NCBI RefSeq assembly: GCF_000018105.1
Contig: NC_009925.1
Coordinates: 5,730,001 to 5,762,000 of the forward strand
Direction of reading: 5' to 3'
Length of the DNA stretch: 32,000 bases
Source of the DNA: Acaryochloris marina MBIC11017
GTDB taxonomy: Bacteria; Cyanobacteriota; Cyanobacteriia; Thermosynechococcales; Thermosynechococcaceae
In this document: positions 6,009-29,845 of the stretch, in pieces
Layout: the number at the start of each line of letters is the position of its first letter
Numbering within the stretch: the first letter of the stretch is position 1
Program-made: the position numbers and the translations under genes
Notes under the pieces: generated by a model
Database searches by the model: none
What the model was told of the DNA's origin: nothing
What the model saw: only the letters and a program-made list of their open reading frames with translations

Positions 6009-6155
6009 AACATTGTCCTCTGCTAGGTTGATACGGTTTAGTATGCTGGGTCAGCCCATCAACAGCAGTGATCGATTTCAGAGATGGGAGTGATGGTCAT
6101 CACCCAGACAAGAGGTGTCCCTAATCCAGCGTTTTAGGAAGAAGAGAGGGACCGA

Positions 6156-11241: not shown

Positions 11242-11281
11242 AATAACGTATGTCATTTTTAAGTCTAAAAAAATAAAATAT

Positions 11282-12418: not shown

Positions 12419-12456
12419 TTTAGCTATTTTATTGATATATCTTATAAAGAGTAAAA

Positions 12457-13944: not shown

Positions 13945-13948
13945 CTAT

Positions 13949-13971
13949 CCCTCTTTTATCACTTTAGACAG
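13949..13971. repeat. Terminal inverted repeat of the IS701-family element (left)
   Basis: Read directly; it is the perfect reverse complement of 15318-15340. Confidence 0.9.
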
Positions 13972-15277
13972 AGAGAAAATCAGGATGCTTGAGCAATTTC
14001 CTCACCAGTGGACAGCAAAATGCCTCCATCTTTGATGTGAGTTGCTCAAACCCCTTTTTCAAAGCACGGCTGGGAAAGACTTCTAACCAGCGCTTTAGAA
14101 GATTCCAACTGATTAACGGTTGAATGATCAAGCGCACATTATTGAGCAGATTCTTCCACCCGTTTTGGTTATCCCACCAAGGATGCTGCGCAAAGTGTTG
14201 ATGTGCCACTGGACAAGAGTCATTGAAGACATCAGCGAACAAACTCACCATCAAGAAAGCGCTCATCACTATCTCCCACCACTTTTCAATTTGTTCGTAG
14301 TGCGTCATGCGAAAATCAGCCCAACCCAAGGTATCTTTAGACTGTTTGAGACCATACTCAATCCAAGTTCTGAAGCCATAGCAATCCCCAATTTCATCCA
14401 GCTTGATCTCGGGTGCCGCTGCCATGACATAAGAGGTTGAGTTCTCTGGTAGCGTTTGGGGGTCCGTGGTTAATAGCCAATAGCGCTTCTGGTGGTGTCG
14501 CTGGCCATAAATGATCTCTTGCCTGTAACGAGTTTCAGTGGTGCCATTGCTGAAGGTTCGTTCAAATGACTGCCACGGTTCGGCAAAGACTGCTTGTTCT
14601 GCGGGTAACCACACCGCATGATTGCTACGAATCGCTAGGATATAGGGCAGCTTTAACTCCTCTAAGACATTCACAAAGTTTGTTTGAGCTTCCCCATACA
14701 AGCTGTCAGCCAGGACGAGCTCAAAGCAAAAGCCCATCCCTTGCAACTGTCGGATCATTCCAGCAGCAATTTGGGGTTTGCTGAGATACTCATCCTCCTC
14801 TTTAAGACGTTCTCGGGGTTTGTACACTTCAAAGGACAAAGGCAAAATCATCCCTTGAAACAGCCCGTAGGCAGTGACTGCGACGATGCCATTCTCTTTC
14901 TTGCCCACATTGCCGATATACTGCCGTTTCACATAGTCGGTACTCTTGCCTTTTTTGCAATCGCCCGTCTCATCGATCAATAGAATTAACCTGCGCCCAT
15001 CCAGTATTTTCAAGATGATGTCCAATCTCTTGTCAGACAAATGTGACGCTACCCAAGGTGATTCACTCAGAAAATGATGCAGGCTTTGATGGTTCTCCAA
15101 GCCCACTGCTCTTGCAATGGCGGGCAATGATTTACGTTTGATATCACTAATCATCCCCAGATGGAGATGCTTGAAGGCTTCATAACTGCGGACTTGGGGA
15201 AATAACTCTGCAAATAGTTGGCAGTACTCATCAACAAAGCCAATGGTTGGTTCTGGACTTCTTGAAGCTGACATCAC
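13964..15277 (-). CDS. IS701-family DDE transposase
   Basis: A 437-aa ORF. It has the motif LLIDETGDCKKGKSTDYVKRQYIGNVGKKENGIV typical of IS701-like transposases. The reading frame is intact. Confidence 0.85.
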   Translation of the reverse strand: MMSASRSPEPTIGFVDEYCQLFAELFPQVRSYEAFKHLHLGMISDIKRKSLPAIARAVGLENHQSLHHFLSESPWVASHLSDKRLDIILKILDGRRLILLIDETGDCKKGKSTDYVKRQYIGNVGKKENGIVAVTAYGLFQGMILPLSFEVYKPRERLKEEDEYLSKPQIAAGMIRQLQGMGFCFELVLADSLYGEAQTNFVNVLEELKLPYILAIRSNHAVWLPAEQAVFAEPWQSFERTFSNGTTETRYRQEIIYGQRHHQKRYWLLTTDPQTLPENSTSYVMAAAPEIKLDEIGDCYGFRTWIEYGLKQSKDTLGWADFRMTHYEQIEKWWEIVMSAFLMVSLFADVFNDSCPVAHQHFAQHPWWDNQNGWKNLLNNVRLIIQPLISWNLLKRWLEVFPSRALKKGFEQLTSKMEAFCCPLVRKLLKHPDFLSV

Positions 15278-15317
15278 TCATTAGAAAAATAGAAACTGAG
15301 AATAGTCTATTTTTTAT

Positions 15318-15340
15318 CTGTCTAAAGTGATAAAAGAGGG
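15318..15340. repeat. Terminal inverted repeat of the IS701-family element (right)
   Basis: Read directly; it is the perfect reverse complement of 13949-13971. Confidence 0.9.
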
Positions 15341-15343
15341 CTA

Positions 15344-16486
15344 TACTCTAGACGGTTAAGAGATTAACTTTCTGGAAAGACTGAAACTTGAGTGAGAGCA
15401 GGCTGGTTAGTTTCGCCTTATGCTCTGTATTGCATTGGTCAATGCACTGTTGAATGGCCCCTTTGAAAGAGTGAAAATCCGAATAATACTTCGAGTAGAG
15501 ACATTCCTTGCGCACAAAGCGCCAAAGCCGCTCAATCAAATTCAAATGGGGTGAATAGGAGGGCAAATAGACTAACTCAATATCGACGATCTCAGCAAAG
15601 TCAGTCACCAGCTGGCATTTTTGATATCGGGCATTGTCTAAAATGACGCTGATGGGTATGACTGGGTCGAGTAGTGCCAGCTTGGCTAGCAACAGACACA
15701 TGCTATGAGAGTTGATGTAGGTGTGGTTGGTGATACTGGTGACTTCTTTGGTGACAGCGTTGAGTGCACCCAGAACATTGAATCGTTGACGGCCAGAAGG
15801 AGAAGGGATGAAGATCCGACGAAGGCACCAGAGAAACCCCAGATAAGCCCGGTGAACAAAATGAGCAGCATCCACAAAAAAGACAAGACGCTCTTGGCGT
15901 TGAGCTTCCTCTAATAAGGGTTCAAGGCGAGTTTGTCGAAACTGCTCTTGCTCCTCAATTTTCTCGGGCAGACTCGACTTTCCCGGCACATACCCCACTT
16001 TTCGAGAGCGACAACCAATGCGTTTGAGGAAGGCTTTGATCTGGGTTGGAGAACGCTTAATACCTGTCAATTGTTCAATGACTGCTTGGGCTTCTGCACT
16101 GGTGCGGGGCGGGTGTTGCTCAAAATAGGCTCTCACACTATCGCTATGAGCGTTGAGTGAACTGGATTGACCTTTGTATTCCAGGGTTTTCAACCCTTCA
16201 ATTCCGCCTTGTTGATACAGACGAAGGGTTTTAGCTAAGGTCGGACGACTAATCTGACAAAGCTGACAAATCTGGGCATGGGGAAGACCCTGACTTTTCA
16301 AGTAGAGCACTTCCATCCGTCGCTGCACCCGTGGGTGAGGGTGATGATAGCGTTCGTAATTGAGGTGTTGGATTTCCTCTGCGGTGAAATCAATTTTAAT
16401 CATGCAAGTAGGGGAGTCGGTTGAGGGATACTCCCAGTCTGCCAAATCTCTCCACTACAATGTTAAGCCGCAAGTCGTACGCAGTA
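15344..16486 (-). mobile_element. IS630-family insertion sequence (ends approximate)
   Basis: TA dinucleotides lie at 15342-15343 and 16487-16488. Both termini begin TACT, but the inverted repeats otherwise match only in blocks (GAC, GG(C)TTAA, GAGATT). The length of about 1.14 kb is typical for IS630. Confidence 0.6.
15348..16403 (-). CDS. IS630-family (Tc1/mariner-like) DDE transposase
   Basis: The ORF track extends to TTG 16445. The ATG at 16403 gives MIKIDFTAEEIQ.... There is an N-terminal HTH region, plus VFFVDAAHF, ILDNARYQK and LPSYSPHLNLIERLW, which fit the DD..E signature of IS630. Confidence 0.85.
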   Translation of the reverse strand: MIKIDFTAEEIQHLNYERYHHPHPRVQRRMEVLYLKSQGLPHAQICQLCQISRPTLAKTLRLYQQGGIEGLKTLEYKGQSSSLNAHSDSVRAYFEQHPPRTSAEAQAVIEQLTGIKRSPTQIKAFLKRIGCRSRKVGYVPGKSSLPEKIEEQEQFRQTRLEPLLEEAQRQERLVFFVDAAHFVHRAYLGFLWCLRRIFIPSPSGRQRFNVLGALNAVTKEVTSITNHTYINSHSMCLLLAKLALLDPVIPISVILDNARYQKCQLVTDFAEIVDIELVYLPSYSPHLNLIERLWRFVRKECLYSKYYSDFHSFKGAIQQCIDQCNTEHKAKLTSLLSLKFQSFQKVNLLTV

Positions 16487-16685
16487 TAATTTGATTTTGA
16501 TCTGACGTTTCCCCTTTATTTCATATCCCTAAGGATTCATGTATAGTCCACGGTGGCCTCAGCTCAATAATCTATAAGATGTCAAACTTGTCCTCTAACT
16601 CCTATTCAGCTTGTTTCAAAGCATTTATCTGCAAAGGCAGCAACTTTAGTGTAAATTCTGGAACTGAACTGATCCCAAATGAATT

Positions 16686-16973
16686 TCAGAGCAAAGCTTT
16701 ACTTGGAGAAGAGGGTTGAATAGAGATTCTAGGAGCGGCGAACAAGTATACACCATTGCCAATCTCTCTAAACTGACCCCTGATGGAATAGGTACTACCT
16801 GCTAGAAAGTCAGTAATCCTTCGAGCAGATTCATAGGGTAATTTTCCTAAGTTAACGAGCAATAGCTGTCCCTTTTTTAAGGCTTGTGCATCTACTTCTG
16901 CTTCAGTAAAGGTATTTGGATAAGATAAGATTATTTCACAAGCAAGACCATGGATTGGCGTCAGATTATTCAT
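16686..16973 (-). CDS. Hypothetical protein (95 aa), AT-rich orphan between IS630 and IS1 copies
   Basis: It has an ATG start. I recognise no family, and the composition is island-like. Confidence 0.35.
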   Translation of the reverse strand: MNNLTPIHGLACEIILSYPNTFTEAEVDAQALKKGQLLLVNLGKLPYESARRITDFLAGSTYSIRGQFREIGNGVYLFAAPRISIQPSSPSKALL

Positions 16974-17227
16974 GATTTAATGGCATACTAATCAGATAAT
17001 TATTTTTTTTCTGTAAGCCTTTTATCCTACTCATATATGAGAAATGTTTGGAATTAAGTAAAATTTCAGATATATTAAGCAAAGGATTTTAAGTCATTAA
17101 ATGAGTTGATTGATAATGAATTTACTTTGAATCTCTTAAAGATAAATCACCAAGCCAAACACTGGTCGTGCATCAAAGAAGTGTGGGTTTGTTAAACCGA
17201 TAGGGAGTCGAGTTGTTTTATTTCCTC

Positions 17228-17605
17228 ATGCAATGTCCTCTATGTGGTCATCCTAAAACCCACAAACATGGCAAGACCAGCAAAGGCAGTCAACGTTACC
17301 GTTGCCCCCACTGTCAACAGACCTTTAGTGAGACCTTTGACACCCTGTGTTATCGCCGTCAGATCTCTCCTGAAACGATCCAGACCATCCTTCAAGCTCA
17401 TGTTGAAGGGAGTAGTCTACGAGGACTCTCTCGCATCACGGGTGTAGCGTATAACACTTGTGTGAGTGTGGTTCGTTCAGCGAGTCATAAATCCCAAATG
17501 ATTCACAATGGGGAAGTTCAGGCCGTTGCGACCGACGTCATTAATGCAGATGAGTTGTGGTCCTTTGTCAAAAAAAGCAAAAGCACTGTGAGCCGAAGGA
17601 GTTGA
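17228..17605 (+). CDS. insA: IS1-family InsA (zinc finger + HTH)
   Basis: The ATG at 17228 gives MQCPLCGHPKTHKHGKTSKGSQRYRCPHCQ.... This is the CxxC...CxxC zinc finger followed by an HTH, as in IS1 InsA. Confidence 0.8.
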   Translation: MQCPLCGHPKTHKHGKTSKGSQRYRCPHCQQTFSETFDTLCYRRQISPETIQTILQAHVEGSSLRGLSRITGVAYNTCVSVVRSASHKSQMIHNGEVQAVATDVINADELWSFVKKSKSTVSRRS

Positions 17606-18057
17606 GGGTAGGCGACTGCTGGATAGCATTGAGTCTTGCGAAAGAGAGTGGTCTCGTGCTCAGTGGCCGTATTGGCAAACATACCGACGAGCTAGCTCAA
17701 GAATTGATTGAAAATACTGAGGGCAAAACCGCCTGTCATCATTGGCAAACGGATGGTTGGGAAGGGTACGCACGACAATTACCCGATGAGGTCGTCCATG
17801 AAGTGAGTAAAGCCCTGACCCAACGCTTAGAGCGGACCAATGGCATCGTGCGTCAGCAGACCGGGCGTTGGCATCGACGACAGAATAAATTTGGCAAAGT
17901 CTGGCAACAGAGTGCGATGACTTTAAGATTGGTGCTGAGCTATTTCAACTGGATTTGGTGCCACTCTCGATTCAAGAACACGGCTGCCCAACGAGCTGGA
18001 TTGACGGAGCGTCCTTGGAGATGGCAAGACTTAGCTTCCTATCCCACACTTTGTTGA
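17557..18057 (+). CDS. insB: IS1-family InsB frame, expected to be expressed as an InsAB' fusion by -1 frameshifting at the A7 run 17570-17576
   Basis: The frame is -1 relative to insA and has no independent ATG. The A7 slippery run lies in the overlap. The fused reading gives ...ADELWSFVKK|KQKHCEPKELRVGDCWIAL..., the pattern expected for IS1 transposases. Confidence 0.8.
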   Translation: MVLCQKKQKHCEPKELRVGDCWIALSLAKESGLVLSGRIGKHTDELAQELIENTEGKTACHHWQTDGWEGYARQLPDEVVHEVSKALTQRLERTNGIVRQQTGRWHRRQNKFGKVWQQSAMTLRLVLSYFNWIWCHSRFKNTAAQRAGLTERPWRWQDLASYPTLC

Positions 18058-18135: not shown

Positions 18136-18543
18136 TTAGATGGTTGCCAATGCATATTTTCGACTATTCAGTTCTAGAAATTCGAGCCAAAGCTTTGACA
18201 ATTGGTTGGCTTCGTCCAGCCTACTTGAAGGGATTATCAGCATACGCCTAGGCCTTCCTCTTCCAGGAAAATTTTTCCAATAAGAAGTAATAATACCTTC
18301 ATGCGTCAGGAAGTTTAATGCGTTATATAAAACTGTATCTGATAGACGATATGGTGGATATTCAGTTTCTACATATTGCATTAGAGCAGAGCCATATGAT
18401 TCACCATTATTAATTAAAATAGTGAGGATACAGCAAACTGCGGCTTCTCTATGTAAATAAATGGGAGGTGGGTTCTGAAAGTAACTAAAAATATCCTGAA
18501 AATTCAATATGATCAACCCTTGGTAATTGAGCAAAATATCCAA
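18136..18543 (-). CDS. PadR-like winged-helix transcriptional regulator (no ATG start; TTG at best, possibly decayed)
   Basis: It has a PadR-like pattern: ...NNGESYGSALMQYVE...SDTVLYNALNFLTHEGIITSYW...GRGRPRRMLI. The only in-frame starts upstream of the domain are TTG codons, and a TAA immediately precedes the ORF. Confidence 0.45.
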   Translation of the reverse strand: MDILLNYQGLIILNFQDIFSYFQNPPPIYLHREAAVCCILTILINNGESYGSALMQYVETEYPPYRLSDTVLYNALNFLTHEGIITSYWKNFPGRGRPRRMLIIPSSRLDEANQLSKLWLEFLELNSRKYALATI

Positions 18544-18651: not shown

Positions 18652-19014
18652 TTATTCTGTCCAATGGGTTAGTTTCTCCCATTTTAGCTCCTGACCATTT
18701 TCTAAAAATAACTTTGAATCTCCAGCAAAATCTTGATGTGGTAAACCAAGCTCGTACATGGAATTTTTGGTATTCACATAAATACGACCATTTTTTGAAA
18801 AACAACCCTGGATCGGCGATGTTTTTAGCCTTTTACCTGATGGATGATTTGGGTGATTGTGAATTTGACCAAAGATGATTACCTTTTTATCGACGTCAAC
18901 ACAAAGCCAAGATTCTATGATTGAAGAGCAAAGCGAAGACAATGATATTTTGCTTATTGTAGATTGATAATTCTGTAAATAGTATTCTATGATATCGTCT
19001 GCTACCACTTTCAA
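18652..19014 (-). CDS. Hypothetical protein (120 aa), TTG/GTG start only
   Basis: This is the longest ORF in the interval and it lies upstream of, and co-oriented with, the PadR-like ORF. I recognise no family. An antisense 89-aa ORF also exists, so the coding call is uncertain. Confidence 0.3.
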   Translation of the reverse strand: MKVVADDIIEYYLQNYQSTISKISLSSLCSSIIESWLCVDVDKKVIIFGQIHNHPNHPSGKRLKTSPIQGCFSKNGRIYVNTKNSMYELGLPHQDFAGDSKLFLENGQELKWEKLTHWTE

Positions 19015-19416
19015 TCTCTCAAAAACTAATCAGTATTTATGTTGGTAATATGGTGAGTTGTTTTATATACTCTATGTTCTTCATGGAAGGCAGTATCACC
19101 TACTAAATTAATCAGGAAAAGTAATCGAAATGAAAAGGCTGCTCATAAAATAGTCCAACCTTGATTTGAGATTGATTCAATATAGATTATTTCAGTGAGA
19201 GTCCCAATAAGGTAGATGATTTTATGATATTGAGCCAAGTGATTTTATTTACTTAGTGAATTGCAAGATTGCTCCTCGTTACTAGCTTGTACCTGAATAT
19301 TAAAAAAGTCTGTGTGATATTGTTACTATTTTTCTTATGAGAAGCTATCTAATTGTGTGCTTGATGTTGAGGATTTCATGGTTATAGTCATTACTTTTGA
19401 TTTTAAGAGATACTAT

Positions 19417-19451
19417 TCACACCAATCGGTTCTGTACCTTAGGATTGGTGT
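19417..19451 (+). promoter_or_regulatory. Perfect 10-bp stem hairpin (CACACCAATC - 15 nt loop - GATTGGTGTG) 42 nt upstream of the first AAA_35 ATPase gene
   Basis: Read directly. Its position in the putative 5' leader or operator region of the 19493 gene suggests a regulatory role. Confidence 0.3.
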
Positions 19452-19492
19452 GACGACTTCCTTGATGGATATAGACCTGTGAATCACATCTA

Positions 19493-20830
19493 ATGACAGT
19501 TGATGAAGCACTAGAAATTATTGATGTTGCGCTTGCACCCCAACGTCTTAATGCTCTCCAGGAGTTAATCTTTAAGCAATGCTGGAAGGGACTTACGTAT
19601 CAAGATATTGCGGCGTTAGCTGGATATGACAATGACTATATTCGGCGAGTCGGATCGCAGCTTTGGCTTGAATTAACGGATTTATTTGCAGAAAAAGTCA
19701 CAAAAAGTAACTTTCGTTCCGTCCTCAGGCAACAAAGCCATAATTCTGACACCCAGAATACCCCTGATACAGAATATTGCCAGAAATCTAATCCTATACC
19801 TGATTTCCCCAGCAGTTCAGTTCCCTTGGAATCACCTTTTTACATCAAGAGGAACCTAGCCGAGAAACGGTCCTATGAAACGGTTGTTCGACCTGGATCT
19901 CTCATTCGGATAAAAGCACCAAAAAAGTGGGGGAAAACCTCTTTACTGCTCAGAATAATAGTTTATGCTGAGTCACAAAATTTTAATACGGTTAGATTAA
20001 ATTTTAATCAGGCAGATCAATCTATTCTCATGAGTTTAGATAAGCTGTTGAGGTGGATATGTTTGAACTTGACTAACCAACTCCAAATACAATCGAAAGT
20101 TGATGAATTTTGGGATAGAGACCTAGGCAGCAAAGTAAGTTGTACGAATTATTTCAGAAGATATATCCTAAGCCAACTGAGTGATCCCCTCGTGATTGCA
20201 TTGGATGATTTAGATCGATTGTTTGAGTATTCTCAAACAGCTCAAGATTTTCTGCCCATGCTGAGGTATTGGCATGAAGAAGCAAATAATTTTGAGGTAT
20301 GGAAAAAACTCCGACTCATTGTTGCCCATAGTACGGAAGCCTATATCCCCCTCAATCTCAGTCAGTCCCCTTTTAATGTAGGCCTTCCCATTCAGTTACA
20401 AGCGTTAACTGTCGATCAGGTCCAAGAATTAGCAGATAGATATGCTTGTACTTGGACAAAAGGTAAATCTGGTCGAACAAAAATATCCTGCCTATGTGAC
20501 TTATGTGGAGGTCACCCTTATTTATTGAACCTGGCTTTTTACCACCTTTTTCATAAAGATCTCTCTCTTCAGGAGCTTATTGATGATGCCCCGATACCGA
20601 CTGGACTCTTTAGCAGCCACCTAAGTAACCAGTTGTTTACGCTTCAACAGCATCCTGAGCTAGCTCGTCACTTTAAAGAAATTGTGTCTGTGGAACAGCC
20701 CATATCTATACCATATGTTTCAGCTTATAAGCTCGAAAGCCTTGGCTTGATTCGATTTGAAAAAGATCAAGTGGTACCAATGTGCGAGTTATATAGACGA
20801 TATTTTCGCAATTGCACAAGTCAATTTTAG
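19493..20830 (+). CDS. HTH-like N-terminal module + AAA_35-type ('AAA-like domain') P-loop ATPase
   Basis: The N-terminus (LQELIFKQCWKGLTYQDIAALAGYDNDYIRRVGSQLW...KVTKSNFRSVL) is the conserved module seen at the N-termini of many cyanobacterial STAND/WD40/AAA-like proteins. Other motifs: Walker A APKKWGKTSLL, Walker B LVIALDDLDRLF, SPFNVG and GGHPYL. Confidence 0.8.
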   Translation: MTVDEALEIIDVALAPQRLNALQELIFKQCWKGLTYQDIAALAGYDNDYIRRVGSQLWLELTDLFAEKVTKSNFRSVLRQQSHNSDTQNTPDTEYCQKSNPIPDFPSSSVPLESPFYIKRNLAEKRSYETVVRPGSLIRIKAPKKWGKTSLLLRIIVYAESQNFNTVRLNFNQADQSILMSLDKLLRWICLNLTNQLQIQSKVDEFWDRDLGSKVSCTNYFRRYILSQLSDPLVIALDDLDRLFEYSQTAQDFLPMLRYWHEEANNFEVWKKLRLIVAHSTEAYIPLNLSQSPFNVGLPIQLQALTVDQVQELADRYACTWTKGKSGRTKISCLCDLCGGHPYLLNLAFYHLFHKDLSLQELIDDAPIPTGLFSSHLSNQLFTLQQHPELARHFKEIVSVEQPISIPYVSAYKLESLGLIRFEKDQVVPMCELYRRYFRNCTSQF

Positions 20831-20848
20831 GAAATTTGGTTTAGGTTT

Positions 20849-23824
20849 ATGCTATCCAACAACCACAAGAACTATGAGTACCAAGTCGGGGGTAGCCTCA
20901 GCATTGATTCTCCAAGTTATGTTGAACGTGAAGCAGATTCTTTATTATTTGACGCCCTTGTGAGAGGTGATTTCTGCTACGTCTTTAATTCACGTCAAAT
21001 GGGTAAATCTAGTTTACGAGTGCGTGTTAGACACAGACTTCGACAAGCTGGTTATAATTCGGTATCGATCGATATCACGAGCATTGGTAGCGAAAGGACT
21101 TCACCTGAACAGTGGTATAAAGGAGTCGCCAATGAAATATTTTACGGATTCAATTTACAGGAAACACTTCACTTCAATCATTGGTGGAAACAGCAATATG
21201 GCTTGACTCCTGTTCAAAAGCTGAGTCTTTTTATTGAAAATGTACTGTTGACCCATATTGTAGGTGAGAAGATCTTCATCTTCATCGATGAAATCGATAG
21301 TATCCTTAGCCTCGATTTCCCGATGGATGATTTTTTTGCACTCATCCGGTCATGTTATAACCAACGAGCAGATAATCCTCAATATAATCGCCTGGCCTTT
21401 GCCCTGTTTGGGGTTTCCACACCCTCAGACTTAATCCAAGATCGAAATCGCACCCCCTTTAACACTGGCCAAGCCATTGAATTAAATGGGTTCCATTTAG
21501 AAGAATGCCATTCTCTTGTGCAAGGGATGGTAGATAAGTACGATCGCCCCGGTAGATTTTTGGAAGAAATTCTATTTTGGACAAATGGACAACCTTTCTT
21601 AACTCAAAAGCTCTGTCAAATTGTTGTCCAGCATGTTGAAGTTGAAGAAAAATGCAACTGTCCACCAGCTCTTTTATCTGACTCTCAATATTCTATTAAG
21701 GATTTTATTGAGCATATTGTTCAGTCCCATATCATTCAAAATTGGAAATCTCAAGATAACCCCGAACATCTTCGTACTATTCATACTCGACTGCTAAGAA
21801 ACGAACATAAAGCCACCCGACTATTAGGAATGTATCAGCATATTCTCCAGGATGGAGTTTTAGCTGAAACGAATAGCGATACTCAAGTGGAATTATTACT
21901 TTCAGGCTTAGTTGTTAAGCGAAATGGTTTATTGAAAGTTTCAAACCGCATTTACAAGTTCGTTTTTGATCAGATGTGGGTTCAAGACCAACTGGAAGAA
22001 TTAAGGCCGTACTCGGAAGCATTGACTGCTTGGATGAATTCTGGTGCTCAGGATGAATCTCGGTTGCTTCGAGGTCAGGCATTAGCAGATGCTCAAGCTT
22101 GGTCTTTAGGAAGAAGTTTAACCAATCAAGACTATCAATTCCTTGCCGCGAGCCAAGCCTTAGATAAGCAACTTGTTGAAGAACGTTTAGCCTTAGAAAG
22201 CGCTAAGAACATAGAGCAAAAACGACGAGAAGACGCCTTGCGTTTAATTATGGAAGGTACCGCTGCCAAAATTGGAGATGAATTCTTCTACTCCTGTGTG
22301 CGCTGCCTTGCTGAAATTTTAGATGTTGAGTACGCTCTCATTGCTGTCTTGGATGATAAAAACCACACCCATGCCATGACTTTGGCTTACAGTGGTGATG
22401 ATGAGTTAGGCAATTGCTGGGAGTATGAGATTGCTGGAACTCCCTGTGAGCAGGTTATTCAACGGCTTGAAATCTGCCATTACCCTCACTCTCTCCAAAC
22501 CCTATTCCCTAACGATCCCTATTTAATCCCTTTAAATGCTCATAGCTATCTCGGCATACCTATCTTAGATAGCCAGGGAGACTATTTAGGCCATTTGGCT
22601 GTGATGGATACAAAGCCGTCTAAAGAAAATATTTCAGATGAGATTGTTATTCTAAAAATTTTTGCTGCTCGTGCGGGAGCAGAACTAACGAGGAAGAAAA
22701 CGGAAGCAGCGTTAGCAAAGCATTTAGAGCAAGTATTGCTCTTGGAGCATATTACTCAGAAAATCCGACAGAGTCTTGATACAACACAGATATTGCAAAC
22801 CACGGCAAATCAAATTGGCAAAGTCTTCCAAGCCAATCGTTGTTTAATTTATACTTATTTACCTAATCCAACTGCTCAACTACCATGGGCTGCTGAATAC
22901 TGTGAAACAGGGTTCACCTCTTTGCTGGATTGGAGTCGTTCCATCATTGATATCCCTTTTGTACGAGAGAGTTTAGCAAACGATGAAGCCATTTCTCTTC
23001 CAGATGTACATACAAATTCTCTGATGGAACCTCTGCCAGATGGGGTTAATATTACTGGCTTGAAGTCAATGATTGCCATTCGAACGTCCTGTCACGGCGA
23101 ACCCAATGGATTGATCCTGATCCAACAATGTGATCGATTTAGGCATTGGACTCAAGAAGAAATTGAATTGTCTGAATCTGTAGCATTGAGGGTAGGAATT
23201 GCTCTGGCGCAAGCTAAGCTCATTGAAAAGGGAAAGGAGCAAATGCTCCAATTGGATCGACAGAATCATCAACTCCATCAGGAAATCTCTGAACGTAAAT
23301 GGATTCAAGACTTCGTGGATGGACAGAATAAGGTATTAAACTTGATTGCCAAGGGAGCAGCCCTTTTGGAAACCTTAAATCTTCTGGCTAAGATGATTGA
23401 GGATCTTTCAGATCAGTCTTTATGTTCTATTCTCTTGTTAGATAATTTTACTGGCAAGCTACATCATGGGGCAGCTCCAAGCCTACCTGAAGCTTACAAC
23501 CAAGCCATTGATGGTTTAAAAATTGGACCCATGGTTGGTTCCTGTGGGACGGCTGCCTATTCAAAACAAACCGTTACAATTACGGATATTGCTACTGATC
23601 CTCGTTGTCAATCAGTCAAGGATGTAGTTTTACAGTATGGACTCAGAGCATGTTGGTCTACTCCAATCATCATCAATGATGAAGTTGTAGCCACCTTTGC
23701 TATGTATTATCGAGAACCTAGAGCACCTGGTTCGAGAGATATAGATTTAGTTGCTAAAGCCACCGATCTAGTCAAAGTTGCGATAGAGCGTTACAGAGCT
23801 CTAGAGAATTTAGCTTGTATATAG
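20849..23824 (+). CDS. AAA_35-type P-loop ATPase fused to a coiled coil and three GAF domains, with no recognisable output domain
   Basis: Motifs: Walker A SRQMGKSSL, Walker B IFIFIDEIDSIL, TPFNTG and NGQPFLTQ. Three GAF-like blocks follow. The last carries the common CSILLLD...AAPSLP...GSCGTAAY...ACWSTPI pattern. The ORF ends directly after the third GAF. Confidence 0.8.
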   Translation: MLSNNHKNYEYQVGGSLSIDSPSYVEREADSLLFDALVRGDFCYVFNSRQMGKSSLRVRVRHRLRQAGYNSVSIDITSIGSERTSPEQWYKGVANEIFYGFNLQETLHFNHWWKQQYGLTPVQKLSLFIENVLLTHIVGEKIFIFIDEIDSILSLDFPMDDFFALIRSCYNQRADNPQYNRLAFALFGVSTPSDLIQDRNRTPFNTGQAIELNGFHLEECHSLVQGMVDKYDRPGRFLEEILFWTNGQPFLTQKLCQIVVQHVEVEEKCNCPPALLSDSQYSIKDFIEHIVQSHIIQNWKSQDNPEHLRTIHTRLLRNEHKATRLLGMYQHILQDGVLAETNSDTQVELLLSGLVVKRNGLLKVSNRIYKFVFDQMWVQDQLEELRPYSEALTAWMNSGAQDESRLLRGQALADAQAWSLGRSLTNQDYQFLAASQALDKQLVEERLALESAKNIEQKRREDALRLIMEGTAAKIGDEFFYSCVRCLAEILDVEYALIAVLDDKNHTHAMTLAYSGDDELGNCWEYEIAGTPCEQVIQRLEICHYPHSLQTLFPNDPYLIPLNAHSYLGIPILDSQGDYLGHLAVMDTKPSKENISDEIVILKIFAARAGAELTRKKTEAALAKHLEQVLLLEHITQKIRQSLDTTQILQTTANQIGKVFQANRCLIYTYLPNPTAQLPWAAEYCETGFTSLLDWSRSIIDIPFVRESLANDEAISLPDVHTNSLMEPLPDGVNITGLKSMIAIRTSCHGEPNGLILIQQCDRFRHWTQEEIELSESVALRVGIALAQAKLIEKGKEQMLQLDRQNHQLHQEISERKWIQDFVDGQNKVLNLIAKGAALLETLNLLAKMIEDLSDQSLCSILLLDNFTGKLHHGAAPSLPEAYNQAIDGLKIGPMVGSCGTAAYSKQTVTITDIATDPRCQSVKDVVLQYGLRACWSTPIIINDEVVATFAMYYREPRAPGSRDIDLVAKATDLVKVAIERYRALENLACI

Positions 23825-26539: not shown

Positions 26540-27352
26540 ATGTGCCGTTTGTTGGGCTATTTAGGCGAACCGGTTTCGTTAGATACCTTTCTCATTGCCC
26601 CCCGCCATTCCCTCGTGGCCCAGAGCTACCAGCCCAAAGAAATGACGGCGGGTTTAATTAACGCCGATGGATTTGGTATGGGTTGGTATAAGCCAGCTTC
26701 CCAACATCCCCCCTATCGGTATCGCAACAGTTTACCCATTTGGAATGATCCCAACTTTGAGGAACTCTGTCGCTATATTTCGTCCGGGAGTTTTCTCGCC
26801 TATATTCGCAGCGCCACCCTGGGACAAAGCCTGCAGCTCAGTAATTGCCAACCCTTTGGCGATCGCCAATTGCTGGGGATTCACAATGGCTTTATTGATC
26901 GGTTTCGTCAAACTCTCTATCGACCGATGCGGGACTGTCTCAGTGACGAACGCTACCAAAGTATTGAAGGAACAACGGACTCAGAACATATTCTGGCTTT
27001 GATTTATGAAACCCTGACCCAAAATCCGACTCAGACCTTGGCCCAGGCTTTGACTCAATCCTTGCACCAGATCCAAGCTTGGGCTAAATCCTATGAGGTG
27101 CGGGTAAGCCTGAATATTGTGCTCAGTGATGGTGAATCTATGACCGTGTCTCGTTACGCCTATCCCGATCCGCCTCCGTCTTTGTACTGGTTAGAAGTGA
27201 CCCATCCGGTGAAAGGGGTACTGGTGGCGTCAGAGCCTTTAGATGCCGATGCAGAGATGCGATCGCAATTTGGGGAGCGTTGGCAATCCATTCCAGCCAA
27301 CTGTTTGTTAACCATCAATCCCAGGAGAGAAGTTGCCACCCATGCCCTCTAA
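26540..27352 (+). CDS. egtC: Class II (Ntn) glutamine amidotransferase, EgtC-like
   Basis: It starts MCRLLGYLG, with the N-terminal nucleophile Cys2. It also has NADGFGMGWY, NCQPFG, HNGFI and GTTDSEH. It overlaps egtB by 11 nt. Confidence 0.7.
   Translation: MCRLLGYLGEPVSLDTFLIAPRHSLVAQSYQPKEMTAGLINADGFGMGWYKPASQHPPYRYRNSLPIWNDPNFEELCRYISSGSFLAYIRSATLGQSLQLSNCQPFGDRQLLGIHNGFIDRFRQTLYRPMRDCLSDERYQSIEGTTDSEHILALIYETLTQNPTQTLAQALTQSLHQIQAWAKSYEVRVSLNIVLSDGESMTVSRYAYPDPPPSLYWLEVTHPVKGVLVASEPLDADAEMRSQFGERWQSIPANCLLTINPRREVATHAL
26859..26866. repeat. HIP1 octamer GCGATCGC
   Basis: Exact match read directly. Confidence 0.95.
27259..27266. repeat. HIP1 octamer GCGATCGC
   Basis: Exact match read directly. 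Confidence 0.95.
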
Positions 27353-28640
27353 GGAACTATTTTCTGGAACAGAACCGCTGCAATTAGAGATTAAGGACAC
27401 CTTGACCCAATCCCGCGCCCGCACCCTCCAGCTTTTTGAAGGCGTTAGTGAGGAGACGTTTCGCCTGCAAGCCAATTCTGACTTTAGCCCGGTGGGGTGG
27501 CATTTGGGACATATTGGCTTTACCGAAGGACTGTGGCTTTTAGAACATGAAGCTGGATATGCCCCCCTGTTTCCAGAGTATCGGCGGTTATTTGCGGCGG
27601 ATGGCTTACCTAAGGCTGAGCGCCAAAACCTGCCCTCCTTTGCGGAAATATGTGCCTATCTAGAGCAAATCCGGAATCAAGTTTGGGACTATTTGCTAGA
27701 AGCCCCTTTAGACACTCGGGCTTGGCTATGGCATTGGTTAGTCCAGCACGAAAGCCAGCATTGCGAGACCATCACCTGGGTGCTCCAACTGCATCGCCGA
27801 CAATCCCAACCCGTTTCGTTTGTGGCCAAGGAAAAGCCATGGCCTGCTGCCCTTGTCAGTACCTCTAAAGAGAAGCCCACCCTGCCAGATCATCAAGACA
27901 TGGTTCCCATTGAAGGGGGGCAGTTTCTCTTAGGCAATGACGGTTTGGAAGCCCTCGATAACGAAAGAAAAGCCCATTGGGTTCAGGTGGATTCATTTTG
28001 GATCGATCGATTTCCCGTGACTCAAGGCCAGTATCAACAGTTCATTGAAGCGGGGGGATATCGTCAGTCCCAATTTTGGTCAGATGAGGGATGGCAATGG
28101 TTACAAGAGAATCCCGTTAACCATCCCACCCATTGGCTTGCCGAGGGGGGAGCTGATCATCCCGTCTGTGGGGTGAGCTGGTATGAAGCAGATGCCTATG
28201 CTCGGTTTGTGGGCAAACGACTACCGACGGAGGCGGAATGGGAGAAGGCAGCCTGTTGGCAGCCTAGACCTCAGGATCCACCCACCAAGCGAATCTATCC
28301 TTGGGGCAACCAGACCCCGGACAACCACCACTGTAATCATGGGGGCTTGCATTGGGGGACGACCCCCGTTCATCAGTATGCAAACGGGCAAAGCGCCTTT
28401 GGTTGTTTCGATTTACTAGGCAATGTTTGGGAATGGACCAATACCTGGTTCCATCCCTTTCCTGATTTCGATCCCTATCCCTACAAAGGCTATTCCATGG
28501 TTTATTTTGATCACCAGCATCGCATCTTAAAAGGGGGGAGTTGGGCGACCCAGGCCCCGGTTCTTAGGGGGGCCTTCCGTAACTGGTATGAGCCTCGGAT
28601 TCGAATTCATTTTGCAGGGTTTCGCTGTGCCTATGGGTGA
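27342..28640 (+). CDS. egtB: Ergothioneine biosynthesis sulfoxide synthase EgtB (DinB-like + FGE-sulfatase domains)
   Basis: The ATG at 27342 lies within the ORF-track ORF 27333-28640. The DinB-type His ligands are in GWHLGHI and QHESQHCETI. The C-terminal FGE-type domain shows PVCGVSWYEADAYARF, GNVWEW and LKGGSW. Confidence 0.85.
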   Translation: MPSKELFSGTEPLQLEIKDTLTQSRARTLQLFEGVSEETFRLQANSDFSPVGWHLGHIGFTEGLWLLEHEAGYAPLFPEYRRLFAADGLPKAERQNLPSFAEICAYLEQIRNQVWDYLLEAPLDTRAWLWHWLVQHESQHCETITWVLQLHRRQSQPVSFVAKEKPWPAALVSTSKEKPTLPDHQDMVPIEGGQFLLGNDGLEALDNERKAHWVQVDSFWIDRFPVTQGQYQQFIEAGGYRQSQFWSDEGWQWLQENPVNHPTHWLAEGGADHPVCGVSWYEADAYARFVGKRLPTEAEWEKAACWQPRPQDPPTKRIYPWGNQTPDNHHCNHGGLHWGTTPVHQYANGQSAFGCFDLLGNVWEWTNTWFHPFPDFDPYPYKGYSMVYFDHQHRILKGGSWATQAPVLRGAFRNWYEPRIRIHFAGFRCAYG

Positions 28641-28726
28641 TTGTGCGGGTTTGTTGGGGATGGTTTACAGTGGTTGGGAACCTAAGGCGACCCCTGTGTT
28701 GCCTCCCTGTTGGAGACCTCTCACCC

Positions 28727-29845
28727 ATGCTTGAGTCTGTGCATACAGAAACTCAATCCCTGTCGGCACCATCCCCCACTGACCTTCAATCTCGTTTACA
28801 GATTACCCAATTTGCCTCGGATCCGTCTTCGACCGCTAGCCAGCCCGGATTAGATGTGATTCAAGGGCTGTCGAAAACCCCAAAAACGCTCCCAGCCAAA
28901 TATTTTTACGACGATCAAGGCTCCCAACTCTTTGAACAAATCTGTGAGCTGCCGGAATATTACCCGACCCGGACCGAGACCGCTATTCTGCAGGCCTATG
29001 CAGCCGAAATCGCCACCATCACTGGCCCGAGTGAGTTAGTGGAATTGGGCAGTGGCAGCTCTACAAAAACACGGTTGCTGTTAGATGCCTATGTTGATAT
29101 GGGGCTGGCCTCCTGGTACTGCCCTATTGATGTCAGTGGCGGCATCCTCAAACAAAGCGCCATCCATTTGCTAAAGGACTATCCCACCCTCAATATTCAT
29201 GGCTATGTTGGCACCTATGAGGCTGCCCTCGCTGCGTTATCCCCCTCTCAACTGCCAACCCGAATGATTTGCTTTCTGGGCAGTACCCTAGGAAATCTCA
29301 ATCCGCAAGAATGTGAACACTTCTTTGCTGAGTTAACCCAAGCCCTGCAGCCCGGTGAGTATTTACTGTTAGGGGTAGATTTGCAAAAATCGGTTCAGCA
29401 ATTGGAAGCAGCCTATAACGATAGCCAAGGGGTTACAGCTGCGTTTAACTTGAATATGCTGCATCATCTCAATCAGCTATTTCAAGGGGATTTCCAGGTG
29501 AACCATTTCCACCATCAATCCTTTTACAACCTGGATAAACATCAGATCGAAATGCATCTTGTGAGCCAAACGGCTCAGAAGGTGAACCTAGCCGCTCTGG
29601 ATTTGACGGTTGAGTTTGAACCGGCAGAAACCATCCGTACGGAAATCTCTCGTAAATTTGATTTAGAGACCTTAAAGCAACAGTTGCGCTCCGTCTCACA
29701 GACTGGGGCTCAGGCTTCGGGAGGCGGGGAAATTGCGGCACACAAGGAATTAACCCCTTTGCGAACTTGGACGGATGCCAACCAATGGTTTGGGCTGGTG
29801 CTGTGCCAATGCCAGGAAAAGGCTCAGGTGGTCCAGGAGGATTGA
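28727..29845 (+). CDS. egtD: L-histidine N-alpha-methyltransferase EgtD
   Basis: The ORF-track ORF starts at GTG 28637, overlapping the egtB stop. The ATG at 28727 is preceded by GGAGA. Signature motifs: LPAKYFYDDQGSQLFEQICELPEYYPTRTE, ELGSGSSTKTRLLL and TEISRKF. Confidence 0.85.
   Translation: MLESVHTETQSLSAPSPTDLQSRLQITQFASDPSSTASQPGLDVIQGLSKTPKTLPAKYFYDDQGSQLFEQICELPEYYPTRTETAILQAYAAEIATITGPSELVELGSGSSTKTRLLLDAYVDMGLASWYCPIDVSGGILKQSAIHLLKDYPTLNIHGYVGTYEAALAALSPSQLPTRMICFLGSTLGNLNPQECEHFFAELTQALQPGEYLLLGVDLQKSVQQLEAAYNDSQGVTAAFNLNMLHHLNQLFQGDFQVNHFHHQSFYNLDKHQIEMHLVSQTAQKVNLAALDLTVEFEPAETIRTEISRKFDLETLKQQLRSVSQTGAQASGGGEIAAHKELTPLRTWTDANQWFGLVLCQCQEKAQVVQED

Follow-up and report, generated by a model that had tools for sequence, protein, structure and literature searches.

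Do the two adjacent P-loop NTPase genes AM1_5686 and AM1_5687 on the chromosome of Acaryochloris marina MBIC11017 encode a functional unit, and if so, of what kind? The genes (here A and B) lie on the same strand, 18 nt apart, in the window (the 32,000-nucleotide stretch of DNA that was analysed; all positions refer to it). An earlier note on this DNA had described this arrangement correctly and had suggested a conflict or defence module. The reading preferred here, which has about an even chance of being correct, is that the pair is a split, two-subunit STAND-type (NOD-like) NTP-dependent signalling switch. The features of the two genes are as follows.

19493-20830, + strand: gene A (AM1_5686, 445 aa), a short gene encoding an HTH and an A-type AAA_35 NTPase (Pfam, UniRef; AF2 pLDDT 88.1)
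19493-19750, + strand: HTH_VMAP-M9 (PF26355), A residues 1-86 (precomputed Pfam)
19805-20809, + strand: AAA_35 NOD-like module (NBD, helical lid, winged helix), A residues 105-439 (Pfam)
19931-19939, + strand: Walker A of A, GKT 147-149 (invariant columns)
20204-20209, + strand: Walker B of A, DD 238-239 (invariant columns)
Within the AAA_35 module of A, + strand: lid G340-H341-P342 (invariant columns, AF2 secondary structure)
20849-23824, + strand: gene B (AM1_5687, 991 aa), encoding a B-type AAA_35 NTPase, a helical linker and three GAF domains (Pfam, UniRef)
20858-22222, + strand: conserved B-type module, B residues 4-458 (home-made B-type HMM, 711 bits), which also includes the lid G247-Q248-P249, a winged helix and a conserved 'LLRGQALxDAQxW' arm
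21002-21010, + strand: Walker A of B, GKS 52-54 (invariant columns)
21287-21292, + strand: Walker B of B, DE 147-148 (invariant columns)
B residues 426-469: long helix that begins inside the B-type module (AF2 model)
22280-22687, + strand: GAF domain 1, B residues 478-613 (40.9 bits, cut-off 22.4)
22778-23206, + strand: GAF domain 2, B residues 644-786 (51.8 bits)
23363-23788, + strand: GAF domain 3 (GAF/GAF_2), B residues 839-980 (48.9 and 51.3 bits)

Both proteins belong to AAA_35, as had been proposed. A residues 105-439 match this Pfam family with 476 bits (cut-off 27) and B residues 15-266 with 105.9 bits; B also matches GAF, and all three of its GAF domains individually exceed the gathering score. 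The N-terminal module of A, which the earlier note had linked to vWA-MoxR-associated proteins, is HTH_VMAP-M9 in Pfam, and the UniRef name of A is in agreement ('vWA-MoxR associated protein N-terminal HTH domain-containing protein'). The motifs GKTSLL and LDDLD of A and GKSSL and IDEID of B are present at invariant columns of the family alignments (A-type: G147, K148 and D238; B-type: G52, K53, D147, E148 and D150). The two NTPases are genuine but ancient paralogues (20% identity over 246 aa, E-value: 2e-7), so the pair is not a recent duplication. Their AAA_35 modules belong to old, distinct subfamilies, here called A-type and B-type. The N-termini of WD40, kinase and other proteins are 50-60% identical to the B-type module of AM1_5687.

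The AF2 models of A and of the B module (pLDDT 87.7) are both confident and predict an NBD-lid-winged-helix fold that is nearest to NB-ARC/Avs/ORC-type NTPases. In the models, the GxP motif (A 340-342, B 247-249) caps the lid helix N-terminally and is followed by a winged helix of three helices and a beta-hairpin; both proteins are thus predicted to have STAND hallmarks. The best Foldseek matches for A are the NB-ARC domains of NRC4 (E-value: 7.5e-8), NRC1 and Roq1, followed by ORC, Avs3 and CED-4, with NRC3 likewise among the top structural matches. B is most similar to the archaeal ATPases 2qen/2fna, archaeal Orc/Cdc6, RPP1 and Avs4 (archaeal Orc1/Cdc6 and PF01637-type ATPases, E-values: 1.6e-8 to 1e-6). 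DnaA and TnsC are also among the structural matches of the pair.

AM1_5686/AM1_5687 is one case of a recurrent cyanobacterial operon in which a short HTH-A gene is followed by a long B-X gene. In the homologues compared, the short gene always encodes an HTH-like head at the N-terminus and lacks a sensor, and the long gene lacks an HTH and encodes variable sensor or signalling domains at the C-terminus, which fits the division of labour suggested in the earlier note. X can be WD40 (the most frequent B C-terminus, 11/25), nothing, a Ser/Thr kinase (STK-TPR), a histidine kinase (PAS/GAF-HK), CHASE2, PBP, 7TMR-HD, REC or, as in AM1_5687, GAFx3. Among 57 informative metagenome loci (HTH-A loci whose downstream sequence spans at least 1.5 kb), B lies immediately downstream on the same strand in 15 and within 8 kb in 24. 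Plasmid loci are paired in five of nine cases, including Nostoc PCC 7120 pCC7120alpha, and four of six B-type genes with unrelated C-termini have a same-strand upstream A-type gene (three immediate, one 4.5 kb away). Gene order is asymmetric, with B immediately downstream at 20 loci and immediately upstream at 1. Pairing follows clades, and the A of the window groups with three loci (L001, L038 and L040) that are all paired. The earlier note would have been refuted by chance-level adjacency of the two gene types, but they adjoin far above chance and their phylogenies mirror each other; the correlation of the partner distance matrices (r = 0.879 for 31 pairs, reached by 0 of 5000 permutations; r = 0.755 for deep pairs only) reflects co-inheritance, which linkage alone gives, and does not thereby prove functional coupling. 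Selection on both genes is uniformly purifying, GAF domains included (dN/dS against the orthologues in L119: A, 0.107; B, 0.113; GAFs, 0.112; approximately 0.11 in every domain). A literature search found nothing on the family.

It is improbable that A and B are independent STAND-like regulators, each homo-oligomeric, that were brought together by local duplication and joint mobility. Solo genes of both types are common (within 8 kb, B is missing for approximately 58% of HTH-A genes, and certain B genes likewise lack an A in the vicinity), so the partnership is not obligatory in cis. Of 34 loci with an A-type gene that lacks a matching HTH head, 32 are solo, and the concatenations among 357 family members are homotypic only (AA, BB, BBB, BBBB), with no A-B fusion protein. 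However, the low identity of A and B argues against a recent duplication, the order is fixed, the strand is shared and start/stop overlaps are frequent. Adjacency also survives approximately 50% sequence divergence and exchange of the C-terminal domain of B, the mirror-tree correlation is high (r = 0.88), and the domain content is complementary, such that neither protein alone holds both input and output.

The sequences before and between the genes bear on their expression:

19416-19445, + strand: promoter-like element TTCACA-18 nt-TAGGAT, upstream of gene A (consensus scan)
19417-19453, + strand: perfect inverted repeat TCACACCAATC/GATTGGTGTGA, unique in the window, with 11-bp arms (19417-19427 and 19443-19453) and a 15-nt loop
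20831-20848, + strand: 18-nt spacer gaaatttggtttaggttt between A and B (terminator scan)

Co-transcription of A and B is probable, as previously suggested, given the operon-like layout. The gap contains no terminator-like site; in 20 homologous pairs it ranges from -17 to +136 nt (9 nt or less in 11 of the 20), and overlaps of 1-17 nt are frequent. TTCAC and TAGGATT are conserved blocks in an alignment with two orthologous leaders (L119 and L118), and the element that contains them may act as a promoter. The earlier note had described a perfect 10-bp hairpin in this leader. The repeat is indeed perfect, but its arms are 11 bp long, and its standing as a hairpin is weakened by a folding z of only -1.69 (RNA fold: -23.8 kcal/mol), by a stem only partly kept in the orthologues (9 of 11 pairs in L119, with one compensatory pair, and poorer in L118) and by overlap with the promoter-like -35/-10 pair. 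An Rfam search with the repeat matched no family. It is possibly an operator or a 5' hairpin.

Two genes lie upstream of the leader, and the synteny of both with the pair is confined to Acaryochloris-like relatives:

18136-18543, - strand: PadR-family regulator, divergent from A-B
18652-19014, - strand: 120-aa ORF without a known domain

The pair had been placed inside a mobile island, which is only partly right, and directly downstream of IS elements, which it is not. The DNA is low in GC (approximately 0.40 across the pair vs 0.50 in the flanks) and free of HIP1 sites (none between 7681 and 24038; 8 observed in the window vs 0.18 expected). However, the PadR gene and the 120-aa ORF intervene between the IS elements and the pair, and the SepF-PadR-hypothetical-A-B block is syntenic, with no IS elements there, in a relative of approximately 40% GC (L119). 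The IS1 element is an insertion into an older syntenic block. Most family loci are chromosomal, amid ordinary genes.

This setting bears on the highly improbable explanation that A and B are accessory AAA+ proteins of a mobile element or replicon, either IstB/MuB/TnsC-like or Orc/Cdc6-DnaA-type initiators for the island or plasmids. IstB, MuB and TnsC are target-selection ATPases with an N-terminal HTH, and A shares the HTH + AAA+ layout; the Orc/Cdc6, DnaA and TnsC matches, the nearby IS elements and the plasmid-borne copies point the same way. Transposase or replication genes are not consistently linked to the family, though, and the IS-free block in L119, the insertion of IS1 into that block and the mostly chromosomal loci all speak against this explanation. 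The GxP motif and the sensor fusions (WD40, GAF, kinases) fit STAND proteins, of which they are typical; to our knowledge they are not seen in transposition ATPases.

Judging from its Pfam name and its relatives, HTH_VMAP-M9, the head of A, is probably a divergent LuxR/sigma70-region-4-like helix-turn-helix, with predicted helices in A at 3-14, 21-31, 36-43, 47-65 and 74-86 (AF2). One family member (P0341) exceeds the gathering score of GerE (27.2 vs 23.5), and Sigma70_r4 matches on other members are below threshold. The window copy matches only HTH_28 (E-value: 0.1-0.16), with no significant match to GerE or sigma-r4. Some pairs have other HTH-like heads in place of HTH_VMAP-M9 (sub-threshold GerE and Cro/C1 matches), and cyanobacterial sigma70 factors are also found fused to AAA_35 (PMC11119718). 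These alternative heads and fusions point to an output in DNA binding or transcription.

The earlier note preferred to see the genes as an NLR-like pair acting in conflict or against phage (abortive infection), in which B would be a pattern- or alarm-sensing STAND receptor and A its helper, with HTH_VMAP-M9 either acting as effector or, as a homotypic adaptor, recruiting other VMAP-type conflict proteins. This is rather unlikely, although several observations are in its favour. The STAND folds are nearest to plant NLRs and Avs proteins, the head is shared with proteins of vWA-MoxR (VMAP) conflict systems according to its Pfam and UniRef names, and HTH domains are listed among the effector modules of such systems (PMC7159879). 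WD40 leads among the B C-termini, 48 cyanobacterial plasmids carry copies, and the copy in the window sits in low-GC DNA that is devoid of HIP1 sites and includes three IS elements. Some loci adjoin toxin-antitoxin, integrase, transposase, AIPR, NB-ARC, NACHT or CyanoTRADDas_TM genes, but these neighbours are anecdotal. Against a conflict pair, neither protein matches a PADLOC family (the sole match is at noise level, E-value: 0.0097), and no homologues were found in 50,697 phage records. A, B and the conserved block encode no toxic effector (nuclease, protease, TIR or pore domain), and a Pfam scan of 22 window ORFs revealed no vWA, MoxR or VMAP-C gene. B-type modules are often N-terminal in classical signal transduction proteins (HK, STK, REC, CHASE2, PBP, 7TMR-HD, GAF, PAS), an outcome that the earlier note had itself listed as counting against its reading, and purifying selection on the GAF sensor is as strong as elsewhere in the two genes. 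A defence role for the pair is thus not supported.

The proposed model for the split signalling switch is as follows. B would be the sensor subunit, whose three GAF domains would bind a small-molecule ligand. Binding would lift the autoinhibition of its N-terminal NBD-lid-winged-helix module, which would then exchange nucleotide and oligomerise. A would be the output subunit, a paralogous NOD module that lacks a sensor and carries the putative LuxR/sigma-r4-like HTH. Through physical contact, activated B would recruit or nucleate A, making the HTH multimeric and active in DNA binding, and the end result would be transcriptional regulation of target genes. The direction from sensor to A is deduced from B, which has no recognisable output domain of its own. 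The architectures, intact NTPase motifs, operon layout, fixed-order adjacency, co-inheritance and purifying selection are direct observations, and the STAND/ORC-like folds are predicted. The recurrence of such pairs across cyanobacteria suggests that split signalling modules of this kind are widespread and unstudied; a defence role for them is not demonstrated.

Several known systems resemble the pair in part. B shares a predicted AAA+ core, lid and winged helix with archaeal Orc1/Cdc6 and PF01637-type ATPases (2qen, 2fna, 1w5s, 2qby), and Orc1/Cdc6 paralogues form heterodimers on DNA (2qby). B has no relationship to them at the sequence level, however, and the pair differs in its C-terminal sensor domains, GxP motif and cyanobacterial expansion, with no link to replication origins. 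According to Pfam/UniRef naming, the HTH_VMAP-M9 domain family of A also occurs in the vWA-MoxR-VMAP ternary conflict systems (Kaur et al. 2020, PMC7159879), but the NTPase of A and B is AAA_35 rather than MoxR, and their other components are missing from the scanned ORFs. The antiviral STAND proteins (Avs1-7, bNACHT) have a NOD fold like that predicted here (Avs3 and Avs4 are among the structural matches) and, like the B family, repeat or sensor domains that vary at the C-terminus. An Avs protein is one polypeptide whose N-terminal effector is a nuclease, protease or TIR domain; A and B lack such effectors, as they lack a PADLOC match. In a 2026 STAND survey there is no mention of the name AAA_35 or of a pair of this kind (PMC13581612).

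Paired or networked NLRs (NAIP-NLRC4 in animals; in plants, sensor/helper pairs such as RGA5/RGA4 and the NRC network) combine two STAND paralogues, a ligand-binding sensor and an output partner, as is proposed for A and B, and are often genetically linked, as are A and B; NRC4, NRC1 and NRC3 of the plant NRC network are top structural matches for A. This is an analogy only, as the NOD family differs, the arrangement is an operon rather than head-to-head, and the output is a putative DNA-binding HTH rather than a cell-death domain.

In MalT and other LAL-type activators (E. coli MalT, AfsR, GutR), signal-dependent oligomerisation activates DNA binding. The A. marina pair resembles these activators in sequence motifs and predicted folds. 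The pair differs in NOD family (AAA_35), in its sensor (GAFx3 rather than a SUPR/TPR domain) and in the position of the HTH, which is N-terminal in A and C-terminal in the activators. In the proposed model, both nevertheless combine an NTP-dependent NOD switch (NBD, GxP lid, winged helix), a ligand sensor and a LuxR/sigma-r4-type HTH output, which in A. marina are divided such that sensor and HTH lie on two separate paralogous NOD proteins.

Genes A (AM1_5686) and B (AM1_5687) lie 18 nt apart on the same strand of the Acaryochloris marina MBIC11017 chromosome, and no terminator-like site was found in the gap between them.

The two genes and the GAF domains of the B protein
19493-20830, + strand: gene A, AM1_5686, 445 aa (ABW30633.1, WP_012165848.1)
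20849-23824, + strand: gene B, AM1_5687, 991 aa (ABW30634.1, WP_012165849.1)
B residues 478-613: first GAF domain, 40.9 bits
B residues 644-786: second GAF domain, 51.8 bits
B residues 839-980: third GAF domain, 48.9 bits

Protein A has the conserved domain AAA_35 (PF14516) at residues 105-439 (476 bits; profile positions 1-330 of 331), and B has the same domain at residues 15-266 (105.9 bits; profile positions 4-251 of 331). Both score above the Pfam gathering cut-off of 27 bits (whole-protein score) and so can be classified as AAA_35 proteins. The GAF domains (PF01590) each exceed their cut-off of 22.4 individually. The N-terminal ~86 residues of A are assigned to PF26355 (HTH_VMAP-M9) in precomputed annotation, and the UniRef name of A is 'vWA-MoxR associated protein N-terminal HTH domain-containing protein'. 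The domains and motifs that the earlier note had called are borne out by these assignments. Copies of A and B with >90% identity are found in other strains of the A. marina clade.

A and B share 20% identity across 246 residues (E-value: 2e-7), and profiles built from their respective relatives form two clearly separate types of AAA_35 module, A-type and B-type. The conserved B-type module is ~455 residues long and is 50-60% identical to the N-termini of very many cyanobacterial proteins. Among the Walker A and B residues, G147, K148 and D238 are invariant in the A family (41 sequences), as are G52, K53, D147, E148 and D150 in the B family (36 sequences); both proteins have the STAND core of Walker A GK[ST] and Walker B hhhhD[DE]. 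A GxP motif, reportedly a feature of the STAND class, is invariant in both families (A: G340-H341-P342; B: G247-Q248-P249). In the AlphaFold2 models (pLDDT: A 88.1, B 87.7), this motif is placed at a helix N-cap right after the NTPase core of each module. Both models have an alpha/beta NTPase core, a helical lid starting from the GxP and then a predicted winged helix of three helices and a beta-hairpin (A 374-429, B 307-364).

The top Foldseek matches of A in the PDB are NB-ARC domains of plant NLRs (NRC4, E-value: 7.5e-8; NRC1; Roq1, TM = 0.47; Sr35; RPP1), with Avs3, CED-4, the Drosophila apoptosome and ORC subunits also among them. Those of B are the archaeal ATPases 2qen and 2fna and archaeal Orc/Cdc6, then RPP1 and Avs4. 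PDB sequence searches with A, the A-family profile and the HTH profile gave only P-loop noise to concatenated RecA or E-values > 0.2, and found no solved structure of a sequence-level relative. Judged by motif and predicted fold, A and B belong to the STAND class in the broad sense, as STAND-like NOD modules (NBD, lid and winged helix) for which the STAND and ORC clades are not separable, because Orc/Cdc6 structural scores are similar to those of NB-ARC and Avs. Neither protein has the tripartite effector-NOD-sensor chain of STAND proteins in one polypeptide: A is a head and NOD without a sensor, B is a NOD and sensor without a head, and the set is complete only across both genes. Homotypic AAA_35 concatenations occur in single polypeptides of the family (A-A, B-B, B-B-B and B with 2-4 repeats of its C-terminal half; P0004-P0013, P0123, P0124 and P0130-P0139). 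The AA and BB-to-BBBB forms hint at a nucleotide-dependent switch with oligomerization, although they are only suggestive.

The HTH_VMAP-M9 head of A is predicted to form a five-helix bundle, followed by a disordered linker (residues 87-98). Its profile matches many stand-alone small proteins, and a protein search with it returned short or fragmentary proteins only. One of these matches, P0341, passes the gathering score of GerE (LuxR) (27.2 versus 23.5); others are labelled sigma-24-like by their sources, and the Sigma70_r4 matches of several head-family members are sub-threshold. The head of A itself shows no significant similarity to GerE or sigma70 region 4: the Pfam scan gave HTH_28 only (E-value: 0.1), and hhalign of the HTH profile against sequences of GerE (E-value: 0.029, in the expected register) and sigma70 region 4 (E-value: 0.13) was not significant. 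Two pairs reached from the B side have an A-type partner with a different N-terminal head, for which GerE and Cro/C1 HTH matches are sub-threshold. In a published survey, AAA_35 is among the accessory domains fused to cyanobacterial sigma70 factors (PMC11119718). Because of the HTH matches in the head family, the alternative heads and the sigma70-AAA_35 fusions together, a putative DNA-binding or transcriptional role is the most economical reading of the A head.

Upstream of gene A, the perfect 10-bp hairpin described in the earlier note is present as an inverted repeat, but its arms are 11 bp long (19417-19427 and 19443-19453). This repeat overlaps a promoter-like TTCACA-18 nt-TAGGAT. The orthologous leaders conserve the blocks TTCAC and TAGGATT rather than the stem, which retains 9 of 11 pairs with one compensatory pair in the related locus L119 and is worse in a second relative, L118. 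The leader folds marginally better than its shuffles (z = -1.69), no Rfam family was found in it, and the half-site does not recur elsewhere in the window. The inverted repeat may conceivably be an operator over the predicted promoter, from which transcription would start near 19452-19455.

The pair lies at the end of a region of low GC content (0.28-0.45 over about 9.9-23.9 kb, versus about 0.50 in the flanks). HIP1 occurs at 8 sites in the window (0.18 expected), with none between 7681 and 24038. The order within this region is an ATP-grasp/FemAB-like cassette, an insertion sequence with 35-bp repeats, an IS630-type element, a SepF ORF, IS1, padR, a 120-aa ORF, A and B.

Features of the low-GC region to the left of the pair
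10498-13551, + strand: AT-rich cassette of three ORFs (27-33% GC) encoding a 247-aa protein without assignment, an ATP-grasp_3 protein (398 aa) and a FemAB/GNAT-like protein (364 aa)
13946-18057: the three IS elements together
13946-13980 and 15309-15343: 35-bp terminal inverted repeats of a complete IS with a DDE_5 transposase
15348-16445, - strand: IS630-type transposase
16686-16973, - strand: small SepF-domain ORF (64.7 bits), with a counterpart in L119 at 6080-6352
17213-18057: IS1, whose InsA-like and DDE_Tnp_IS1 parts occupy two frames that overlap, an arrangement expected under programmed frameshifting

The three ORFs at the left end of the region resemble a cassette of foreign origin for peptide or amino-acid ligases. 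Contrary to the earlier placement of the pair directly downstream of the IS elements, the divergent padR gene and the 120-aa ORF stand between. The block SepF-PadR-hypothetical-A-B is syntenic in L119 without any IS, and PadR-hypothetical-A-B is syntenic in L118. It follows that IS1 entered a pre-existing block and that the pair is not IS cargo. With ~40% GC along its whole length and no HIP1, the L119 contig suggests acquisition of the 40% GC block of the window from a lower-GC relative or lineage. A role of the AAA+ modules in transposition or replication is very improbable and was rejected, as they lack a consistent link to any transposase or replication gene.

Several other features of this DNA were recorded. 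The DNA examined for both relatives ends within about 110 bp past the B stop codon (L118, 6540 bp; L119, source contig of 12621 bp); the L118 contig stops there, the L119 contig runs on for no more than about 290 bp, and a strain-variable junction or repeat may lie just downstream of B. The 18-nt motif GAGTTGTTTTATTTCCTC at the left end of IS1 (17210-17227) recurs with 89% identity between A and padR (19055-19072) and with 83% identity at the IS630-type end (16362-16379); these recurrences could be chance or IS-end remnants. Positions 91-2637 encode an 848-aa protein with cNMP-binding, sigma-54-interaction AAA+ with lid and 4Fe-4S (Fer4_5) motifs, an odd architecture because use of sigma-54 is not known from cyanobacteria. 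In core, HIP1-bearing DNA at 26540-29845, GATase_4, FGE-sulfatase + DinB_2 and Methyltransf_33 proteins are encoded in a row, which is an EgtC/EgtB/EgtD-like layout of ergothioneine biosynthesis.

The A-B two-gene AAA_35 module is defined in this analysis as a short gene for a head and an A-type NTPase, followed directly on the same strand by a co-inherited B-type gene. The window pair is such a module, and L118 and L119 each have an orthologous pair. When metagenome contigs were scanned with an alignment of HTH-A (A-type proteins with the HTH head), 80 loci were obtained, 57 of them with at least 1.5 kb of downstream DNA. A B-type gene is immediately downstream on the same strand in 15 of these 57, within 8 kb in another arrangement in 9 further loci (four of the five convergent cases are near-identical) and absent nearby in 33. 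Across all 80 loci, B is immediately downstream in 20 and immediately upstream in 1, so the gene order is strongly asymmetric. The gaps between A and B range from -17 to +136 nt (<=9 nt in 11 of 20).

An independent, annotated plasmid sample had paired genes at 5 of 9 loci, including the following.

Family loci on plasmids
Nostoc sp. PCC 7120 pCC7120alpha: A-B pair (WP_010999744, WP_010999745) with a 4-nt overlap
Acaryochloris sp. 'Moss Beach' plasmid: A-B pair
Planktothrix plasmid: pair in which B carries CHASE2
Gloeothece plasmid: locus with the B gene interrupted by IS1

B-type proteins whose C-termini are unrelated were also taken as a starting point: an A-type gene was found upstream on the same strand for the Ser/Thr kinase-TPR, PBP and 7TMR-HD forms, and 4.5 kb upstream on the same strand for a PAS/GAF histidine kinase form; none was found beside a tandem B-WD40 locus and one 710-aa B. 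B-type genes are otherwise rare in the DNA sampled around the loci, and by rough estimate the chance expectation for an immediate same-strand B neighbour is well below 1%. Adjacency of the two gene types above chance, which the earlier note had made its key test, is thus seen at metagenome, plasmid and B-side loci. A genome-contig scan with a single protein yielded mainly a clade that served as a contrast group only: its A-type proteins (Crocosphaera, Cyanothece and diatom endosymbionts) have an N-terminal ~120 aa without an HTH match and are solo in 32 of 34 loci. The padR gene and the 120-aa ORF were considered as third and fourth components and set aside as lineage-specific neighbours because they are kept only in Acaryochloris-like orthologous blocks (0 other loci). 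When the genes around solo HTH-A loci were clustered in search of another partner that recurs, only small synteny clusters emerged. One solo clade on Nostoc plasmids (L132 and L134) is syntenic with genes for a 'TOMM precursor leader peptide-binding protein', an amidohydrolase and a sensor kinase, and may be a RiPP cluster regulator.

In a neighbour-joining tree of A proteins, paired or solo status clusters by clade, and the window A groups with three proteins (L001, L038 and L040) that are all paired with B-WD40. The A-A and B-B distance matrices are correlated (r = 0.879, 31 pairs; 0 of 5,000 permutations reaching r), and r is 0.755 for deep comparisons only. Over long times, then, inheritance or duplication has kept each pair together as a unit, while the C-terminal domain of B was swapped. 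Among 25 B partners, WD40 is present in 11 and ~10 are B-only (450-540 aa); a few giant partners carry the B module at their own C-terminus. Only Acaryochloris-like relatives (P0121, P0122) have the GAFx3 form, in which a sensor specific to this lineage was swapped onto a standard chassis. In comparison with the 85%-identical orthologous block L119, A has a dN/dS of 0.107 and B one of 0.113; the values are alike across the HTH, both NODs and the GAFs, with relaxation only in the A linker. By these values, neither gene is decaying, and signs of diversifying selection on the sensor are absent in the L119 comparison. That A and B are functionally independent neighbours is quite improbable.

The proposed model for the pair is a split STAND switch, with B sensing and the HTH heads of A as the DNA-binding output, and it is considered about equally likely to be right or wrong. 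Its base is the architectures, motifs, folds, operon structure, recurrent fixed-order adjacency, co-inheritance and purifying selection. The GAF domains of B would sense a ligand, and ligand binding would license nucleotide exchange and oligomerization of the B NOD. The oligomerized B NOD would recruit or nucleate the paralogous A NOD, and the clustered HTH heads of A would then bind DNA. From this base we infer the contact between A and B, the direction of signalling, DNA binding, a ligand and targets. Against the split switch, no A-B (Rosetta-stone) fusion was found among 357 family proteins, although AA, BB, BBB and BBBB forms occur, and more than half of HTH-A genes are solo in cis.

The earlier note had favoured a conflict or defence pair. 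The NLR-like predicted fold of the NOD modules could fit such a function, as do a head common to VMAP proteins, the prevalence of WD40 among B partners, the copies on plasmids and anecdotal toxin-antitoxin or defence neighbours at some loci. However, a search of PADLOC-DB v2 (Avs, bNACHT and others) gave no match for A and only mREase_IV for B, at noise level (E-value: 0.0097; 12.9 bits), so neither has a significant match and the pair falls outside Avs and bNACHT. A toxic effector is absent, no homologue is present in the phage collection searched, there is no sign of arms-race evolution, and the kinase, HK, CHASE2 and PBP partners of B fit uneasily with defence. This function is therefore possible but rather unlikely. 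Among the loci themselves, an A-B(PBP) pair in L125 of Tolypothrix campylonemoides has a CyanoTRADDas_TM gene (3865-4170) upstream of it in divergent orientation; this component takes its name from TRADD-N conflict systems. At other family loci (L122, L137), NACHT-HEAT, PIN, MNT, AIPR and NB-ARC genes are found nearby; like the L125 neighbour, they hint at defence islands only anecdotally.

Cyanobacteria encode thousands of AAA_35 proteins, with >4,000 matches to A and at least 8,000 to B among the candidates scored. A literature search on AAA_35, PF14516, VMAP-M9, AM1_5686/5687 and STAND gene pairs found only the sigma-factor accessory-domain mention, and no paper describing AAA_35 function or the A-B pairing. 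The window locus is one ordinary member of a family-level module that is widespread, conserved, uncharacterized and directly testable. A conserved, co-inherited operon of a short HTH gene and a long sensor gene gives two 'AAA-like domain-containing protein' annotations a testable model, namely a split NOD switch in which modular inputs lead to a transcriptional output, which would be a bacterial parallel to paired or helper NLRs. The pCC7120alpha pair of Nostoc sp. PCC 7120 is a tractable test case. GAF domains bind small molecules, and the Acaryochloris GAFx3 variant is therefore attractive for ligand discovery.

A broader proposal, which is speculative and somewhat doubtful, is that ancient AAA_35 paralogues form a large cyanobacterial split-STAND class. 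Here B would be a sensor with swappable inputs (WD40, GAF, kinases, CHASE2 and PBP) and A a helper with an HTH transcriptional output, B would nucleate hetero-oligomers of A as in NAIP-NLRC4 or plant sensor/helper NLRs, and solo genes would form an NRC-like trans network. If true, this class would add a third major logic of bacterial signal transduction to the one- and two-component systems, and paired NLRs would have a prokaryotic precedent.

Among known systems, the vWA-MoxR-VMAP ternary system has linked vWA, MoxR AAA+ and VMAP-C genes; A-B is not a member, and Pfam scans of 22 window ORFs found no vWA, MoxR or VMAP domain. Structurally, the closest systems by predicted fold are NB-ARC/Avs and the Orc/Cdc6/PF01637 ATPases, and organizationally they are paired NLRs (NAIP-NLRC4 and plant sensor/helper pairs). 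The closest functionally are the MalT/LAL STAND regulators, although the Pfam output for A and B has no sequence match to MalT-type families. In MalT/LAL proteins the NOD, sensor and C-terminal LuxR HTH are in a single polypeptide, whereas A has an N-terminal HTH and the sensor belongs to the second protein, B; by analogy, A-B may work like MalT without being a member of its family.
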